In this document: positions 4,726-57,553 of the stretch, piece by piece | Position numbering within the stretch: position 1 is the first letter of the stretch | Layout: each line of letters begins with the position of its first letter | Source of the DNA: Aquifex aeolicus VF5 | Lineage (GTDB): Bacteria > Aquificota > Aquificia > Aquificales > Aquificaceae | Assembly: GCF_000008625.1 (NCBI RefSeq) | Contig: NC_000918.1 | Span: forward strand, 596,989 to 660,988 | DNA length: 64,000 nt | Direction: 5' to 3' | The notes under the pieces: generated by a model | The model's input: the letters and a program-made list of their open reading frames with translations, nothing else | Databases searched by the model: none | What the model was told of the DNA's origin: nothing | Program-made: the position numbers and the translations under genes

Positions 4726-4813
4726 TGGTGGGGGTGGAGGGAGTCGAACCCTCACGGGCTTTTCGCCCAGGGGATTTTAAGTCCCCCGCGTCTGCCAATT
4801 CCGCCACACCCCC
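4726..4813 (-). tRNA. tRNA-Leu (anticodon TAA), long variable arm, CCA encoded
   Basis: Reverse complement is GGGGGTGTGGCGGAATTGGCAGACGCGGGGGACTTAAAATCCCC...GGGTTCGACTCCCTCCACCCCCACCA. The acceptor stem GGGGGTG pairs with CACCCCC, the anticodon loop is CTTAAAA, and there is a TPsiC-like GGTTCGA. Confidence 0.85.
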
Positions 4814-46603: not shown

Positions 46604-46696
46604 TGGCGGAGGGGGAGGGATTCGAACCCTCGGAGGGGTTTTAGCCCCTCTGCCGCTTAGCAAGCGGCCGCCTTCGGCCTCTCGGCCACCCCTCCT
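46604..46696 (-). tRNA. tRNA-Ser (anticodon GCT), long variable arm, CCA encoded
   Basis: Reverse complement is GGAGGGGTGGCCGAGAGGCCGAAGGCGGCCGCTTGCTAAGCGGC...GGGTTCGAATCCCTCCCCCTCCGCCA. Confidence 0.85.
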
Positions 46697-50749: not shown

Positions 50750-52047
50750 TGGGAATGACTATAACCGAGAAGATTCTGGCGGAACACGCTGGTAAGAAGG
50801 AAGTCCACCCCGGAGAACTCATAACTGCAAAGATAGACCTCGCAATGGCAAACGATGTGACCGCACCCCTTGCCATAAAGATACTTGAGAAGTACGGAAT
50901 AGATAAGGTCTTTGACCCTGAGAGGATAGCCCTTGTTCTCTCACACTTCGTTCCCGCAAAGGACATAAAGTCCGCTGAGCAGGCAAAGATAGTAAGAGAA
51001 TTCGTAAAAAAGCACGGTATAAAGTGGTTCTTTGAAGAGGGAGAAGGTATAGAACACGCCATACTCCCCGAGCAAGGACTCGTCGTTCCCGGGGACCTCG
51101 TTGTAGGTGCGGACTCCCACACCTGCACTTACGGAGCTCTCGGAGCCTTTGCAACGGGGGTCGGTTCCACCGATATAGCCTACGCTATGGCTACCGGAGA
51201 AGTTTGGCTCAGAGTTCCCGAAAGTATGAAGTTCATCTTCTACGGAAAACTAAAACCATGGGTGATGGGAAAGGACCTAATCCTCTACACGATAGGGCAA
51301 ATAGGGGTTGACGGAGCACTCTACAGGGCTATGGAATTTGACGGAGAGACCATAAGAAACCTTTCTATGGAACAGAGGTTTACTATAGCAAACATGGCGA
51401 TAGAAGCGGGTGGAAAGAGCGGAATAATCTCTCCTGATGAAAAAACGATAGAATACGTAAAACAAAGGGCAAAGAGACCATGGAAAGTTTACCAGAGCGA
51501 CCCTGACGCTGAGTACCACTCCGTTTACGAGTGGGACGCTTCTCAGATAGAACCCTTAGTAGCGTGGCCCTACCTACCTTCAAACGTGCATCCCGTTTCT
51601 GAATCCACCCATATAACGATAGACCAGGCATTTATAGGCTCCTGCACAAACGGAAGAATAGAGGACCTGAGAGTTGCAGCAAAGGTGTTTGAAGCTGCGC
51701 TAAAGCAAGGAAAGAAAGTTCACCCTTACGTGAGGTGCATAGTAATTCCCGCGTCCAAGGCTATATACAAGCAAGCTTTGAAAGAAGGACTCATAGATAT
51801 CTTTATGGAAGCCGGTTGCGTGGTTTCTACTTCTACGTGCGGTCCCTGCCTTGGTGGACACATGGGAGTGCTTGCGGAAGGTGAAAGGTGTATATCCACA
51901 TCTAACAGAAACTTCCCCGGAAGGATGGGTCATCCTAAGAGCGAAAGCTACCTCGCAAACCCTGCCGTGGTCGCTGCGAGTGCAATAATGGGAAGAATTG
52001 CCCACCCCGACGAGGTGGTGAAAGCCGAAACCCTTGCGGGTGTTTAA
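50749..52047 (+). CDS. leuC: 3-isopropylmalate/homoaconitate dehydratase large subunit (aconitase family)
   Basis: [15 protein letters not shown]..., GSCTNGR, and Cys ligands in STCGPC. Confidence 0.9.
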   Translation: MGMTITEKILAEHAGKKEVHPGELITAKIDLAMANDVTAPLAIKILEKYGIDKVFDPERIALVLSHFVPAKDIKSAEQAKIVREFVKKHGIKWFFEEGEGIEHAILPEQGLVVPGDLVVGADSHTCTYGALGAFATGVGSTDIAYAMATGEVWLRVPESMKFIFYGKLKPWVMGKDLILYTIGQIGVDGALYRAMEFDGETIRNLSMEQRFTIANMAIEAGGKSGIISPDEKTIEYVKQRAKRPWKVYQSDPDAEYHSVYEWDASQIEPLVAWPYLPSNVHPVSESTHITIDQAFIGSCTNGRIEDLRVAAKVFEAALKQGKKVHPYVRCIVIPASKAIYKQALKEGLIDIFMEAGCVVSTSTCGPCLGGHMGVLAEGERCISTSNRNFPGRMGHPKSESYLANPAVVAASAIMGRIAHPDEVVKAETLAGV

Positions 52048-52061
52048 TTCTTCTTTTCTTT

Positions 52062-52806
52062 ATGCCCGTAAAGTTAAAGGTTTACTTAAAACCTGAGAAA
52101 CCTATAAAATCAAGCCTTCTCACACCTGAGGCGGTTCACGGTCTCTTTTTTAACCTCCTTTCGGAAGAATTCGCAGAAGAACTCCACAGACCTTCAAAGG
52201 TAAAGCCCTTTTTCCCTGTGGTTTCCTCAATTTTACGAAGAGGAAAAGGAACTTGATAAGTTCTATCTGGAAGTCTTATTTCTGCAAGAAAGTTTAATGC
52301 CCAAATTTTTATCTTCCTTTTTACTTGAAAATAAAGAAATCCGTTTAAACGGTGTAAAACTGAAAAAAGTTTTAAGCCCGAAAGTGAGCGAGGAGAGTAT
52401 TAAATCTTACGAAACCCTTTTTAATTAGGCAGGAGAGGAAAACACCGTGGTTATGGACTTCATATCACCGACGACGTTTAAAAAGGGCGATTTTGACCAT
52501 CCCCTTCCTGAACAGAAGTTCGTTTTTAAAAGCCTGATAAGAAAGTAGGTGAGGTTTTCCGATTTTCCCCTTGATGCAGATTTAAGGGAATTTATTGAGA
52601 AAAATATTTTCGTGTCTGGCGTATGGACAAAGACGAGGAAAGTTGAAACGGGACAAAATGCAAAACTCGTAGGCTTCACGGGAAGGGTAGTTTACTACGT
52701 GTGGATAAACGCCCTCTCTTCCTTTTCTGAGTTTGCCGGCGTAGGCAGAAAAACCACAATGGGTTTCGGAAAAACAAGAAAAGTTCCCCTCAAAAATTTA
52801 GAATGA
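52062..52806 (+). pseudogene. cas6: cas6 (CRISPR repeat endoribonuclease) pseudogene with one +1 frameshift near 52240 and two in-frame TAG codons (~52423 and ~52546)
   Basis: The N-terminal piece reads MPVKLKVYLKPEKPIKSSLLTPEAVHGLFFNLL... The middle piece, in the next frame, reads EEKELDKFYLEVLFLQE...IRLNGVKLKKV. After a TAG comes DFISPTTFKKGDFDHPLPEQKFVFKSLIRK, then another TAG, and the tail contains FAGVGRKTTMGFGKT, the Cas6 glycine-rich loop GhGxxxxxGhG. Confidence 0.7.
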
Positions 52807-52843
52807 TGTATAATAAATTTACAGCCTTGCTGAGGGCTTTTTA

Positions 52844-53082
52844 GCTCCTTGGCAATTGAATAGGGTTTATGGGTCTTGATAAGTGATGCTTTGATGATGT
52901 GATGAAATGAAATCATGATGTGATATGATTGAAGTGATTGAAAATCAAGGGTAAAAATTTTATAAAGGCATACTCAATTTTGCAGAACCTCGGGTTAGCG
53001 GAAATTAACATTCGTTTCATTAAGGTCAGAAGTCTAATAAGTTATTTATAAAGCGTTTTTTTAGACACAGGCGTGCAGGGTT
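52844..53082 (+). repeat. 239-bp CRISPR-leader-like element, copy 1 (no CRISPR repeats follow)
   Basis: It is 238/239 identical to 56868-57106 and lies directly downstream of the cas6 pseudogene. Confidence 0.9.
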
Positions 53083-53093
53083 ACGCCCTAATA

Positions 53094-53150
53094 ATGAGGG
53101 ATTGCGACTATAATAATGTGGCTCTCTGCAATGATAACAAAAAGCGTTGA
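53094..53150 (+). pseudogene. truncated copy (18 codons) of the small ORF that follows leader copy 2
   Basis: Both copies share the block GCCCTAATAATGAGGGATTG(C/T)GA. The product MRDCDYNNVALCNDNKKR* compares with MRDCDSITFRIDECP... at 57254. Confidence 0.4.
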
Positions 53151-53232
53151 AATGCCCTAAGTAAATAAGAGGTTTTTCTTTCTCATTTCATAAACTTAAT
53201 AAATAAACACTCACTTATAATTAATATTTCCT

Positions 53233-53556
53233 ATGGCTAAGATAAAGCACCTTGAGGAAAAGTTCGGGGAAAAGCCTGTAAGTGAGCTCGTTTATGAAGA
53301 TGAGAACGCAAAAGTAATCAGGTTTTACCTTAAGAAGGGACAGGAGATAAAGCCTCACACATCCCCTTCCAGCGTTTACATTACAGTTTTAAAAGGGAAA
53401 GTAACTTTCACAGCGGGAGAGGAAAAAATCAAAGGGGAGCAAGGTTCTACGATTTACTACGAGCCTAATGAACTCCACGGATTTGTGGCAGAAGAGGATA
53501 GCGTTCTGGAAGCTGTCATAACTCCAAAACCCGTGAGGAAAGTAAGCCTCAAATAA
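53233..53556 (+). CDS. cupin-domain protein (107 aa)
   Basis: Has the cupin beta-barrel pattern (G.E...H........Y...G...F, with NELHGF). No SD sequence precedes the ATG. Confidence 0.65.
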   Translation: MAKIKHLEEKFGEKPVSELVYEDENAKVIRFYLKKGQEIKPHTSPSSVYITVLKGKVTFTAGEEKIKGEQGSTIYYEPNELHGFVAEEDSVLEAVITPKPVRKVSLK

Positions 53557-53628
53557 GAAATTCTTATATCCTTATAATGATAAGTAAGTGTTGATTTACT
53601 TTGATAAAGGTCATAATATTAATATCAA

Positions 53629-54114
53629 ATGGGGAAGCAGGAGAAGGACTTAGGAACTGCTTGGGAGTATCAGGGTTGTCTTATTCCGAAAGATCTTTAT
53701 TACGACATAGAAAATCAGGTCTGGGTAAGAGTAAACGAAGACGGAACGGTAACGCTCGGGCTCACGGACGTGGGACAGACCCGTGCCGGTAGACTACTCC
53801 ATATAAGGGTAAAACCCGTAGGGACGAAAGTAAAGAAGGGAAAACCAGTTGCGACACTTGAAAGCGGGAAGTGGGCCGGACCCGTTCCCGCACTCGTGGA
53901 GGGCGAAATCGTTGAAGTAAACCCGAAAGTCGTGGAAGACCCGAACTACATAAACATTGACCCTTACGGAGATGCGTGGATCGTAAAGATTAAACCCACA
54001 AGCGAAGAAACGCTCAAGAGAGACCTCTCCGAACTTGCTCACGGTGAAAAAGCTCACGAAGAAATGAAAAAGCATATAGACGAGTGGGATATAGTTTGTA
54101 TGAGGTGTGTGTGA
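53629..54114 (+). CDS. glycine cleavage H-protein-like lipoyl-domain protein with a C-terminal CxxC
   Basis: LESGKWAGPVPALVEGEIVEVNPKVVEDPNYINIDPYGDAWIVKIKP aligns with the GcvH lipoyl-lysine region (ESVKAAS...SDPYG.GW). The protein ends CMRCV. Confidence 0.65.
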   Translation: MGKQEKDLGTAWEYQGCLIPKDLYYDIENQVWVRVNEDGTVTLGLTDVGQTRAGRLLHIRVKPVGTKVKKGKPVATLESGKWAGPVPALVEGEIVEVNPKVVEDPNYINIDPYGDAWIVKIKPTSEETLKRDLSELAHGEKAHEEMKKHIDEWDIVCMRCV

Positions 54115-54377
54115 TGGGTGCGAAGGATAAACACGTTATTCTTCTGGTTTCTCAATGGTGTCCTACATGTCCTCATGCGGATGCCCTCTGGAAAAAACTT
54201 CAGGAAGAATACGGCTTTAAGTATGAAGTTCTGGACATAGGTACTCCGGAGGGCAGGTACTGGGTCACAAAGCTAATGGTAAGGAGTGTTCCTTCCACGG
54301 TTATAGACGGTAAGCTTGCATTCGTGGGGGTGCCAAACGAAGCGGAAGCACGCAAAGCAATAGAGGAGGGGGTTTAA
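54114..54377 (+). CDS. thioredoxin/glutaredoxin-like small protein (CPTC active site)
   Basis: MGAKDKHVILLVSQWCPTCPHA. Its ATG shares one nucleotide with the TGA of the preceding gene. Confidence 0.6.
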   Translation: MGAKDKHVILLVSQWCPTCPHADALWKKLQEEYGFKYEVLDIGTPEGRYWVTKLMVRSVPSTVIDGKLAFVGVPNEAEARKAIEEGV

Positions 54378-54404
54378 CTTTATACCTTTTTATAATCTTT
54401 AAGT

Positions 54405-55262
54405 ATGTACTTTCAAGACATCATAATGACCCTTCACAAGTTCTGGGCTGAAAAGGGATGTTTAATCTGGCAACCCTACGACGTTGAAGTCGGTGCAGGG
54501 ACAATGAACCCTGCCACTTTCCTGAAAGTTCTTGGTAAAAAGCCGTGGAACGTCGCATACGTTGAACCCTCAAGAAGGCCTCAGGACGGAAGGTACGGAG
54601 AAAACCCCAACAGACTCCAGCACTACTACCAGTTTCAGGTAATTTTAAAGCCCGCACCCCGAAATCCTCAGGAGATTTACCTTGAAAGCCTTGAAAGACT
54701 AGGCATAAATCCCCTGGAACACGACATAAGGTTCGTGGAAGACGACTGGGAATCTCCTACCTTGGGAGCATGGGGACTCGGCTGGGAGGTCTGGCTTGAC
54801 GGAATGGAAATAACCCAGTTCACCTACTTCCAGCAGGCGGGAGGACTTGACCTTGACGAGATATCCGTTGAGATCACTTACGGACTGGAAAGGATAGCGA
54901 TGTACATACAGGATAAAGACAGCGTTTTTGACATAGAGTGGAAAGAGGGAATAACCTACGGCGAGATATTCAAGCGTTCGGAGTGGGAGTGGAGCAAGTA
55001 CAACTTTGAACTTGCAGACACGGATATGCTCTTTCAGGTTTACGAAATGTTTGAAAAGGAATCAAAAAGGATGGTTGAAGAAGGGCTTATATTCCCCGCT
55101 TATGACTACCTCCTGAAGTGTTCCCACGTGTTTAACATACTGGACGCAAGAGGAGCTATTTCCGTTCAGGAGAGGGCGAGGTACATAAGGAGGATGAACA
55201 ACCTTGCAAGGGAAATAGCAAAGCTCTATCTTCAAGTCTTTGAAAATGTTGGAGCAACTTGA
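54405..55262 (+). CDS. glyQ: glycyl-tRNA synthetase alpha subunit
   Basis: [36 protein letters not shown] is highly characteristic of GlyQ. Confidence 0.95.
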
Positions 55263-55905
55263 AAAAAAACTCGGCTACACCTTTAAGGATAAATCTCTAC
55301 TCGAAAAAGCCTTAACCCACGTATCTTACTCAAAAAAAGAACACTACGAAACTCTTGAGTTCCTCGGCGATGCCCTCGTGAATTTTTTTATAGTTGACCT
55401 TCTGGTTCAGTATTCCCCCAACAAAAGGGAAGGCTTTTTATCTCCCTTGAAAGCTTACCTCATAAGTGAAGAGTTTTTTAATTTACTCGCTCAAAAACTG
55501 GAACTTCATAAATTCATAAGAATAAAGAGAGGAAAGATAAACGAAACAATTATAGGAGACGTATTTGAAGCTCTTTGGGCAGCGGTTTACATAGATTCGG
55601 GAAGGGACGCAAACTTCACACGGGAACTTTTTTACAAACTTTTTAAAGAAGATATACTGAGTGCTATAAAAGAGGGAAGAGTAAAAAAAGATTACAAAAC
55701 GATACTTCAGGAGATCACTCAAAAACGATGGAAGGAAAGACCGGAATACAGACTCATAAGTGTTGAAGGTCCTCACCATAAAAAGAAGTTCATAGTGGAA
55801 GCAAAAATAAAAGAGTACCGAACACTCGGCGAAGGAAAGAGCAAAAAGGAAGCTGAACAAAGGGCAGCCGAGGAATTAATTAAATTACTGGAGGAATCAG
55901 AATGA
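55240..55905 (+). CDS. rnc: ribonuclease III
   Basis: 221 aa with the RNase III signature ETLEFLGDA and a C-terminal dsRBD. Confidence 0.95.
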
Positions 55906-56831
55906 AAAAAGGAGTAATACTTATAAACCTCGGCGGACCTGATTCTCTGGAAGCGGTAGAGCCGTTCCTTTATAACCTTTTCTCAGATCCAGATATTTTC
56001 TCCTTACCCTTTCAAAAAGTTCTCGCAAAAATAATCGCAAAGTTAAGGGCTAAAAAAACGAGACATTACTACGAGCTTATGGGAGGAAAGTCTCCCCAAT
56101 ACGAACAAACCCTTGAACAGGCTAAAGCACTTCAGGAAAGACTAGGAGAAGATTACAAGGTAGTTGTGGGAATGAGATACTGGAAACCTTACATAAAAGA
56201 CGCACTTTCTGAACTCCTGAAGGAAGGAATAAACGAAGTAATACTCCTTCCCCTGTACCCCCAGTACAGCAAAACGACAACTGGTTCCGCTTTTAACGAG
56301 TTTGAAAGGAGCAAAAAAGCCCTCAAAGCGGACCACATTAAAGTTAAGAAAATAGAACACTTTTACGACCACCCCCTCTATATAAAGGCGTGGGCCGAGC
56401 AGATAAAACAGAGCGTTGAAAAGCCCGAAGAATACCATTTTCTCTTTTCCGCCCACAGCCTTCCCAAGAAATTGATAGAAGAAGGAGACCCTTATCAGGA
56501 ACAAACCGAAAAAACGGTAAAACTCATTATGGAAAATTTCCCTGAAGTAGAATACACGCTTGCTTACCAGAGTAAAGTGGGTTTCGGAAAGTGGCTCGAA
56601 CCCTCAACAGACGAAGTAATCAGAAACCTGATTAAGAAAGAAGTTAAAAAGTTATTAGTTATTCCCATATCCTTTGTTTCCGAACACAGCGAAACCCTTT
56701 ACGAACTCGACAAACAATACAGAGAACTTGCCCAAGAACTGGGATACGAAGAATTCGTAAGAGTCCCTACTCTAAGAACAAACCCCTACTTCATATCTGC
56801 ACTTGAAGATTTAGTAAAAAATGAAGTATAG
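55902..56831 (+). CDS. hemH: ferrochelatase
   Basis: [34 protein letters not shown]-terminus and a length of 309 aa. Confidence 0.9.
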   Translation: MKKGVILINLGGPDSLEAVEPFLYNLFSDPDIFSLPFQKVLAKIIAKLRAKKTRHYYELMGGKSPQYEQTLEQAKALQERLGEDYKVVVGMRYWKPYIKDALSELLKEGINEVILLPLYPQYSKTTTGSAFNEFERSKKALKADHIKVKKIEHFYDHPLYIKAWAEQIKQSVEKPEEYHFLFSAHSLPKKLIEEGDPYQEQTEKTVKLIMENFPEVEYTLAYQSKVGFGKWLEPSTDEVIRNLIKKEVKKLLVIPISFVSEHSETLYELDKQYRELAQELGYEEFVRVPTLRTNPYFISALEDLVKNEV

Positions 56832-56867
56832 TAAAATTAAGTAAAGGGCTTTTTTAGCCCTCTCGTG

Positions 56868-57106
56868 GCTCCTTGGCAACTGAATAGGGTTTATGGGTCT
56901 TGATAAGTGATGCTTTGATGATGTGATGAAATGAAATCATGATGTGATATGATTGAAGTGATTGAAAATCAAGGGTAAAAATTTTATAAAGGCATACTCA
57001 ATTTTGCAGAACCTCGGGTTAGCGGAAATTAACATTCGTTTCATTAAGGTCAGAAGTCTAATAAGTTATTTATAAAGCGTTTTTTTAGACACAGGCGTGC
57101 AGGGTT
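56868..57106 (+). repeat. 239-bp CRISPR-leader-like element, copy 2, followed directly by CRISPR repeats
   Basis: It is 238/239 identical to 52844-53082, with a single T/C difference near the 5' end. A hemH terminator-like hairpin (GGGCTttttAGCCC) lies just upstream. Confidence 0.9.
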
Positions 57107-57202
57107 CCTAATGTACCATAGAGGAGTTGAAACGTCGTCTATGAAGTCGTAAGCCTCTTTAAGTTTTTGTTTAGTTCCTAATGTACCGTGCGGAGCTTAA
57201 AC
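57104..57202 (+). CRISPR. degenerate CRISPR mini-array of two repeats (30 and 29 nt) flanking one 40-nt spacer, with a possible further spacer and a degenerate terminal repeat to ~57272
   Basis: R1 is GTTCCTAATGTACCATAGAGGAGTTGAAAC, the spacer is GTCGTCTATGAAGTCGTAAGCCTCTTTAAGTTTTTGTTTA, and R2 is GTTCCTAATGTACCGTGCGGAGCTTAAAC. The repeats share 14 nt at the 5' end plus a GGAG...AAAC tail, like the (A/G)TTGAAAC 5'-handle type processed by Cas6. Confidence 0.6.
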
Positions 57203-57253
57203 TTTTATCATGTATGTACAGGATTATTTGAATCTTGTGGTTATGCCCTAATA

Positions 57254-57550
57254 ATGAGGGATTGTGATTCCATAACATTCCGTATTGACGAATGCCCTGT
57301 TCCCCTCCTGAGCATAAAGAATGCTTACCTGAAAGTTAATGAAATATCTCCCGAAGACTTTGTTGATAGAATTAAGCATTCCGGCTATCTTTCAATGCTA
57401 AGAAAAGGGGAATTAATTAAAACTTTAGAATGTGATTTTAATCTAAATTTAAGAAAAAAGTGCGAGAAAAATCTGGAAAAAGGAGACAAGGCTATATTAA
57501 TAATCCATGAAGAAAAGGAATTAAAGTTTTTCGATATTGAGGTCTTGTAA
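57254..57550 (+). CDS. hypothetical 98-aa protein immediately downstream of the CRISPR remnant, with a truncated paralog at 53094
   Basis: MRDCDSITFRIDECPVPLLSIKNAYLKVNEISPEDFVDRIKHSGYLSMLRKGELIKTLECDF... No family was recognised. The ATG chosen is the one conserved between the two loci. Confidence 0.4.
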   Translation: MRDCDSITFRIDECPVPLLSIKNAYLKVNEISPEDFVDRIKHSGYLSMLRKGELIKTLECDFNLNLRKKCEKNLEKGDKAILIIHEEKELKFFDIEVL

Positions 57551-57553
57551 ACT

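Follow-up and report, generated by a model that had tools for sequence, protein, structure and literature searches.

The window analyzed in this study is a 64,000-nt stretch of the Aquifex aeolicus VF5 genome (contig NC_000918.1, positions 596,989 to 660,988, forward strand), and all coordinates below refer to it. It contains two long direct repeats that bracket a block of housekeeping genes beginning with a cupin gene and ending with hemH. With a probability of roughly 85%, the two repeats are paralogous CRISPR leaders that carry an rRNA-type boxA, each located in front of a decayed array, and recent gene conversion is the simplest explanation of their identity. The elements are CRISPR leaders with a boxA at their 5' ends, they are followed by the remains of arrays, the first adjoins a cas6 pseudogene, and both are absent from a related Aquifex species. 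Elements of this kind are known, since boxA-bearing leaders have already been published for the VF5 genome (Stringer et al., 2020; PMC7665894).

Two CRISPR leaders and their decayed arrays

The repeat pair was delimited by a repeat search of the window and by MAFFT alignment. Positions 52844-53082 (copy 1) and 56868-57106 (copy 2) lie on the same strand, 4024 bp apart, and are identical at 238 of 239 positions, as the sequence-only reading had proposed. The sole mismatch is a T at 52856 in copy 1 against a C at 56880 in copy 2. No other repeat in the window exceeds 43 nt, and chance similarity is therefore ruled out. The 239-bp core consists of a 236-nt leader plus the GTT shared by the repeats that follow. 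Both unique junctions, from leader 1 into the following block and the cupin gene and from hemH into leader 2, were present in four independent A. aeolicus short-read assemblies (Logan contigs L001-L004). Inside the leader, the unitigs of these assemblies break after 30 or 43 nt, which is how a de Bruijn graph behaves when it meets a true repeat; thus, the pair is not an assembly artefact. The leaders and the array remains, all on the plus strand, are as follows.

52844..53079, +, CRISPR leader copy 1, 236 nt (repeat search, alignment to relatives' leaders)
52870..52945, +, TGAT-rich tract of copy 1 (TGAT counts)
53080..53108, +, Rt1, 29-nt family-2 unit GTTACGCCCTAATAATGAGGGATTGCGAC abutting leader 1 (nhmmer E 0.013, second-best match in the window)
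53109..53145, +, relic-array spacer of 37 nt, flanked by Rt1 and a further family-2 repeat
53146..53172, +, Rt', 5' part of a family-2 repeat GTTGAAATGCCCTAAGTAAATAAGAGG, cut at the right end of module 1 (nhmmer E 0.0036)
56868..57103, +, CRISPR leader copy 2, 236 nt, ending at the first repeat
56894..56969, +, TGAT-rich tract of copy 2 (TGAT counts)
57104..57133, +, R1, 30-nt repeat GTTCCTAATGTACCATAGAGGAGTTGAAAC (repeat search)
57134..57173, +, spacer 1, 40 nt
57174..57202, +, R2, 29-nt repeat GTTCCTAATGTACCGTGCGGAGCTTAAAC
57203..57239, +, spacer 2, 37 nt
57240..57268, +, Rt2, family-2 repeat unit GTTATGCCCTAATAATGAGGGATTGTGAT (26/29 identical to Rt1; third-best nhmmer match in the window)

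Leader identity was established by position and by homology. The last base of copy 2 (57103) directly abuts the first base of R1 (57104), and leader 1 ends at 53079, with a family-2 repeat beginning at 53080. Among relatives, upstream DNA was available for 12 arrays of the same repeat family as R1 and R2, from Thermocrinis, Hydrogenobacter, and Aquificaceae metagenome-assembled genomes (MAGs). In all 12, the array is preceded on its own strand by CTTGGCAAYTGAATAKGG, after which comes a conserved leader body. Alignment showed these leaders to be built alike: first a -10-like hexamer and a hairpin, next the boxA block and an iterated short motif, and last a conserved stretch of ~85 nt ahead of the first repeat. 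With the boxA block removed, the VF5 leader still aligned with the same-family leaders of relatives (z = 7.7-13), and it did not align with leaders of other repeat families. The earlier suspicion of CRISPR leaders is thus borne out, both by the homologous body and by a 5' end that is the published A. aeolicus boxA. A generic repeat unlinked to arrays had been named as the outcome that would speak against leaders; every homologue retrieved stands before an array, and rRNA operons share the 21-nt boxA block of the leaders and nothing else of them.

The composition of the leaders differs from that of their surroundings, with 32-34% guanine plus cytosine (GC) versus 40-55% in the flanking genes. 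No plus-strand open reading frame (ORF) of at least 40 aa lies within the leader. The predicted stability of the leader RNA fold equals that of shuffled sequences (z = -0.09). An Rfam scan of the window detected no family in the leaders and no rRNA gene, and the leader has no match among PLSDB plasmids. The TGAT tract contains nine TGAT in 76 nt, against 0.17 expected, and no other 76-nt stretch of the 64 kb has six or more. In the aligned tract, the Thermocrinis and Hydrogenobacter leaders carry CCGTAAT iterated four to five times instead. The tracts may be a binding-site array for a leader-binding factor that co-varies between lineages. Two further observations concern the relatives' leaders. 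Those of L012 and L022 (Thermocrinis and Hydrogenobacter) share an insertion of ~150 nt just after the boxA block, and the leaders of these genomes form clusters that correspond to leader type and cut across genomes (L005/L010/L025; L007/L019/L021; L012/L022).

The array behind copy 2 is a decayed two-spacer array. R1 and R2, 70 nt apart, differ at 5 of 30 positions, both deviate from the consensus of the family in relatives (GTTCCTAATGTACCGTGTGGAGTTGAAAG), and the third unit, Rt2, belongs to another family. That family was detected with an nhmmer profile built from the relatives' repeats only. Its three best matches in the window, all on the plus strand, are 53147-53166 (E 0.0036), 53086-53108 (E 0.013), and 57243-57265 (E 0.47); the fourth has an E of 2.6. 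The best of them, within Rt', covers profile positions 2-21. Rt1 resembles the repeats in L053, L054, L057, and L060. The repeat of the orphan array L053 is GTTGCATTAATCCCTAGAAAGTGAGGGATTGCGAC, and arrays that neighbor intact homologues of the cas6 pseudogene are made of repeats of 35-37 nt, e.g., CTTGCAATGCCCTAAGTAAAGGAAGGGATTGCGAC. These latter loci are type III-A (cas10, csm2-5, csx1, cas6) with convergent cas2-cas1-cas2.

The sequence-only reading had noted one shared block after both copies. The 20-mer GCCCTAATAATGAGGGATTG does occur exactly twice, at 53085 and 57245; it follows directly after copy 1 only, and after copy 2 it comes only past two repeat-spacer units. Nor is the block a neutral one: to judge by the profile matches, it is one unit of another family of CRISPR repeats, and copy 1 hence also stands before a relic array. 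That the common block might be a degenerate main-family repeat closing the array was considered and rejected: the main-family arrays of relatives end in 3'-degenerate copies of their own repeat, while an independent family-2 profile picks exactly these sites. No main-family repeat was found behind copy 1. From the repeat assignments, both loci are chimeras of a common derived design, in which the leader of one family precedes repeats of another.

Decay extends to the cas gene beside copy 1. The feature is as follows.

52062..52806, +, cas6 pseudogene; module 1, the inserted segment described below, begins at its ATG (TIGR01877, tblastn)

The reconstructed protein matched the TIGR01877 Cas6 model with an E of 9e-15 and 55.6 bits, below the cutoff of 58.65, and the pseudogene is 61% identical to intact 253-254-aa PF10040 Cas6 proteins. 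According to tblastn, the frame shifts near 52210, two in-frame TAG codons (52426-52428 and 52546-52548) stand where the homologue has Ser and Trp, and 9 aa are deleted. The C-terminal glycine-rich motif GVGRKTTMGFGK is kept, and the reading frame is not intact. No cas1 or cas2 is among the genes that the ORF list and Pfam gave for the interval of 48.8-58.6 kb. Both loci are relics. Four exact 20-22-mers from the three spacers had no match in IMG/VR.

The rrn-type cassette at the leader 5' ends

The A. aeolicus BoxA RNA sequence GGCUCCUUGGCA is located at the 5' start of both leaders. The first 11 nt of leader 1, GCTCCTTGGCA, are boxA; together with the preceding base they match 11 of 12 positions of the published 12-mer (52843-52854, A for G1), and the extended rrn-type block of leader 1 spans 52844-52865. 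Copy 2, with the preceding G at 56867, has the full 12/12 BoxA GGCTCCTTGGCA at 56867-56878. This 12-mer is the A. aeolicus rrn BoxA that binds NusB-NusE of the same organism and was crystallized with it (Stagno et al., 2011; PMC3177189). The elements upstream of the two boxA are listed below.

52809..52814, +, -10-like hexamer TATAAT upstream of leader 1 (read from the sequence)
52823..52838, +, hairpin just upstream of boxA in copy 1, in boxB-like position (terminator/hairpin scan)
56803..56832, +, promoter-like TTGAAG-18-TATAGT in the last hemH codons, upstream of leader 2 (consensus scan)
56843..56863, +, hairpin AAAGGGCTTTTTTAGCCCTCT upstream of boxA in copy 2 (scan; present in the predicted minimum-free-energy fold)

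A hairpin occupies the same position before boxA in all related leaders and in the rrn leaders. The -10-like hexamers of both copies and of the relatives precede boxA by 30-36 nt and fall immediately outside the 239-bp core. The TATAAT of copy 1 belongs to a 17/20 block (52802-52821) common to copy 2, and its score was reached by 2 of 2000 shuffles. A sigma-54 promoter reading of TGGCAA was dropped because no TTGC -12 element lies at the right spacing.

An exact scan of JGI metagenomes with the 21-mer GCTCCTTGGCAAYTGAATAGG returned 22 sites. Nine are located 60-100 nt upstream of 16S rRNA and four in the 16S-23S spacer just before 23S, with Rfam confirmation for a subset of these 13 rRNA-linked sites. 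All remaining sites lie directly upstream of CRISPR arrays of four repeat families. Since the 21-mer occurs at rrn and array sites only, the 5' end of the leader is taken as the rrn antitermination cassette of the clade, and the rest as a family-specific CRISPR leader. The same hairpin-boxA cassette was observed 38 to ~230 nt before the first repeat in three further Aquificota repeat families (L033 2130-2800, L050 4421-4680, and L053 10255-10781; repeats GTTTATTAGGTGCCTATAAGGGATTGAAAC, GTTTCTAATCATCCGTGTGGAATTGAAAG, and the 35-nt GTTGCATTAATCCCTAGAAAGTGAGGGATTGCGAC). L053 is the orphan array mentioned above, and it adjoins a molybdopterin adenylyltransferase gene.

From this arrangement we infer a transcription start and antitermination. 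RNA polymerase would start ~25-35 nt upstream of boxA, and the cassette would comprise the hairpin, BoxA, and the flanking AAYUGAAUAGGG. The nascent BoxA RNA would recruit NusB-NusE, and this recruitment would spare the untranslated CRISPR RNA precursor (pre-crRNA) from Rho termination. Cas6-type enzymes would then cut the repeats. The 3' end of the leader is the leader-repeat junction, the place at which new spacers would be inserted.

Origin of the identity between the copies

The sequence-only reading had offered gene conversion or recent duplication of CRISPR leaders. That pair of options has gained support, as copy 2 ends at the first repeat of a mini-array. Between the two, recent gene conversion of the leader copies is the explanation that we favor, and, leader identity being accepted, it is probable. 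It rests on the contrast between the core and its surroundings. Outside the core, the two loci retain weaker homology, 17/20 upstream in the -10 region, with indels in addition, and 26/29 downstream in the common block; the hairpin region between the -10 and the core cannot be aligned. The core differs by 0.4% and its flanks by ~10-15%, and the difference between the core (238/239) and the common block (26/29) is significant (Fisher p = 0.004). Within single related genomes, paralogous leaders are only 70-92% identical, so the core is not intrinsically invariant. A near-identical tract that is bounded by boxA and the leader-repeat junction and lies within older, diverged homology is the pattern expected from gene conversion. 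Either of the pair could have been the donor, as could a third leader copy at another place in the genome.

In the read set ERR15087784 (L001), copy 2 is polymorphic at a single site, 56880, and the base there is that of copy 1, a point in favor of conversion. Relative to the window, the set has 4 differences in 3909 nt (54130, 54193, 55632, and 56880); sequencing has thus covered two or more VF5-like stocks or strains with slight differences. The unitig of this set extends 64 nt deeper into leader 1 than those of the other sets, a hint of another pattern of differences between the copies in that strain.

Several points weigh against the explanation by boxA-bearing leaders and conversion. The flank homologies behind the conversion argument are short (20 and 29 nt). 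BoxA position 1 in copy 1 is A, not G, and this is the base that contacts NusB (PMC3177189). The consensus scan gave no acceptable -35 for copy 1, and the -10 elements match the consensus no more often than expected from shuffled sequences, so that they are assigned by position only. Arrays of two spacers do not need antitermination, and at these loci the signal may be a vestige. For further leader copies in VF5, their number, their identity, and their association with arrays are taken from the literature. There, CRISPRFinder, CRISPRdb, and Lechner et al. (2014) give five confirmed small arrays in the VF5 genome, and CRISPRFinder and CRISPRdb five questionable ones.

If one locus had recently arisen from the other by simple duplication of a segment with promoter, leader, and array, and no homogenization had followed, the identity would merely reflect youth. 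The core differs at 0-1 of 239 sites, about as the A. aeolicus read sets diverge (4 single-nucleotide polymorphisms in 3909 nt), and both loci share a derived feature, the same shortened 29-nt family-2 repeat. A young duplicate should, however, be uniformly identical, and these homologous flanks have 3/29 and 3/20 mismatches plus indels, the hairpin regions do not align, and the array contents of the two loci differ. We regard this explanation as a tentative second choice, of clearly less than even probability.

The surroundings of the leaders were also compared with those in relatives. The bracketed block is as follows.

53233..56831, +, housekeeping block of cupin, gcvH-like, thioredoxin-like, glyQ, rnc, and hemH genes (Pfam; exact VF5 protein matches)

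Pfam assignments agreed with the gene content given previously for this segment (cupin, GcvH, thioredoxin-like, glyQ, rnc, hemH). The neighbors of the block are ftsH-leuC on the left (LeuC is aq_940) and pheA on the right (Pfam). Exact VF5 protein matches were obtained for GlyQ, HemH, the cupin, PheA, and LeuC. In the MAG of an Aquifex sp. (82-86% nucleotide identity), a gap of 57 nt separates leuC from the cupin gene, and hemH and pheA overlap by 12 nt. Two modules present in VF5 are absent there, 52062-53172 (1111 bp, module 1) and 56811-57536 (726 bp, module 2), and the collinear alignment picks up again at 53173. The hemH C-terminus of VF5, KNEV (stop), comes from the insert; that of the MAG is RSSLP (stop). 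In BLAST, the MAG target aligned to both sides of module 1 (over 15 nt) and of module 2 (over 8 nt). The overlap sites, 52046-52061 / 53173-53190 and 56803-56810 / 57537-57553, resemble target-site duplications. The direct comparison of left and right flanks in this T-rich sequence was not significant; hence, target duplication is a possibility only.

The block itself has a different position in other genomes. In L032 it is located between topA and an AMP-binding enzyme gene; in L062 and L063 it is absent and leuC and pheA are 11 nt apart; in L064 and L065, leuC is followed by mutS2. The cupin-hemH block thus moved during evolution as a rearrangement unit, and nothing ties this move to the leaders.

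These comparisons bear on a further explanation, in which cassettes of leader and mini-array were copied into new intergenic sites and the leaders were homogenized by gene conversion afterwards. The discrete insertions relative to the sister species, the possible target duplications of ~15 and 8 nt, and the common chimeric design would fit it, and yet we consider it unlikely. If true, cassette copying would give orphan arrays a way of spreading within a small genome while remaining expressible.

The promoter and boxA of copy 1 might instead now serve as an antiterminating leader of the cupin-gcvH-trx-glyQ-rnc-hemH operon and be kept by selection. The 150 nt from leader 1 to the cupin start codon contain nothing that resembles a terminator, and the six genes share one orientation and are closely spaced. 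In addition, the neighboring cas6 is dead, and copy 1 lacks a repeat of its own leader family. Against this stand the relative's own upstream sequence with its TATAAT, which is kept before the VF5 cupin gene, and the weaker boxA (11/12) and poorer promoter of copy 1. The identity with copy 2 over the full 236 nt would also be left unexplained, and a role of this kind is improbable.

It is very improbable that the repeats stem from a mobile element, as its ends or remnants (an insertion sequence, a miniature inverted-repeat transposable element, or a repetitive extragenic palindrome-like repeat), or that they are sites for excision or amplification of the 4-kb segment. In favor of this reading, they are direct repeats around a delimited block, both sides of each insert align with the Aquifex sp. 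target, and the block is elsewhere in L032 and missing between leuC and pheA in L062. Against it, no transposase was found among the ORFs and no terminal inverted repeats among the inverted repeats detected, the flank similarity is not significant, every homologue stands before a CRISPR array, one relative has the block at the same site without leaders, and L062 has 11 nt between leuC and pheA in place of the solo leader expected from repeat recombination. The block also holds glyQ and hemH, the loss of which should be lethal. The excision of the 3.8-kb segment proposed earlier accordingly found no support. L001-L004 have canonical junctions only, and the synteny comparison suggested for it gave the block at the same site without a leader in the MAG and no leader scar in L062.

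Relation to known systems and remaining features

BoxA-containing CRISPR leaders have been described for type I-E arrays of Salmonella and Escherichia coli and for five A. aeolicus arrays (Stringer et al., 2020; PMC7665894). The VF5 pair resembles them in having, within the putatively transcribed leader and upstream of the first repeat, a boxA that matches the organism's own rrn boxA, and the proposed NusB/NusE-dependent shielding of untranslated pre-crRNA from Rho would be the same. It differs in the distance of ~236 nt from boxA to the first repeat, in the boxB-like hairpin before boxA, in the decayed two-spacer arrays, and in one copy being placed before a repeat of another family.

The rrn antitermination leader (boxB hairpin, boxA, boxC) has the identical 12-mer (copy 2), and the identical extended block of 21 nt with a preceding hairpin occurs in Aquificota contigs, both upstream of 16S and before 23S. 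In VF5, a CRISPR leader body and repeats lie downstream rather than rRNA. The leaders of the GTTCCTAATGTACCGTGTGGAGTTGAAAG family in Thermocrinis and Hydrogenobacter share with those of VF5 the order of elements, the conserved 85-nt block (52932-53017), and ~60% overall identity. Their arrays have 14-36 uniform repeats, they are ~60 nt longer, and paralogous leaders are 70-92% identical versus 99.6% in VF5.

Orphan or degenerate CRISPR arrays with decayed cas genes are a known outcome of CRISPR locus decay. The VF5 loci conform to it in their mutated repeats, the cas pseudogene, and the lack of adaptation or effector genes nearby. They depart from it in that the leader is intact and identical in two decayed loci and that each array mixes two families. 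The local details that are new are the chimeric relic arrays, the cas6 pseudogene, the absence from the sister species, and the likely gene conversion.

For the most part, these findings confirm the conservation of CRISPR leaders within a genome. The rrn-type hairpin-boxA cassette at the 5' edge of leaders in at least four Aquificota repeat families broadens the case for an ancient and widespread antitermination of CRISPR transcription. A relic pair with identical leaders amid decay could be used for studying gene conversion between CRISPR loci.

Module 2 ends in an annotated gene, listed below.

57260..57550, +, aq_950 ORF, 96 aa from an ATG inside Rt2, 32% GC

aq_950 had no Pfam match at an E of up to 10 and no homologue but itself among 5.8 billion proteins; therefore, its status as a real or cas-related gene was rejected. 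It is probably the tail of inserted module 2 and not a real gene. In copy 1, the equivalent ATG opens a frame of 18 codons only. The idea that the module 2 tail and the module 1 head were once contiguous (array, short region, and cas6, as in relatives) is unsupported; neither blastn nor tblastx gave a match between the aq_950 region and the stretches before cas6 in L054-L061 or any other locus retrieved.

Two minor observations concern the rest of the window. Positions 53133-53161, which cover the end of the relic spacer and the start of the next repeat, are 24/29 identical to 56402-56430 inside hemH, probably by chance. The only Rfam matches in the window are three minus-strand tRNA genes, at 4729-4813, 22926-22999, and 46607-46695.

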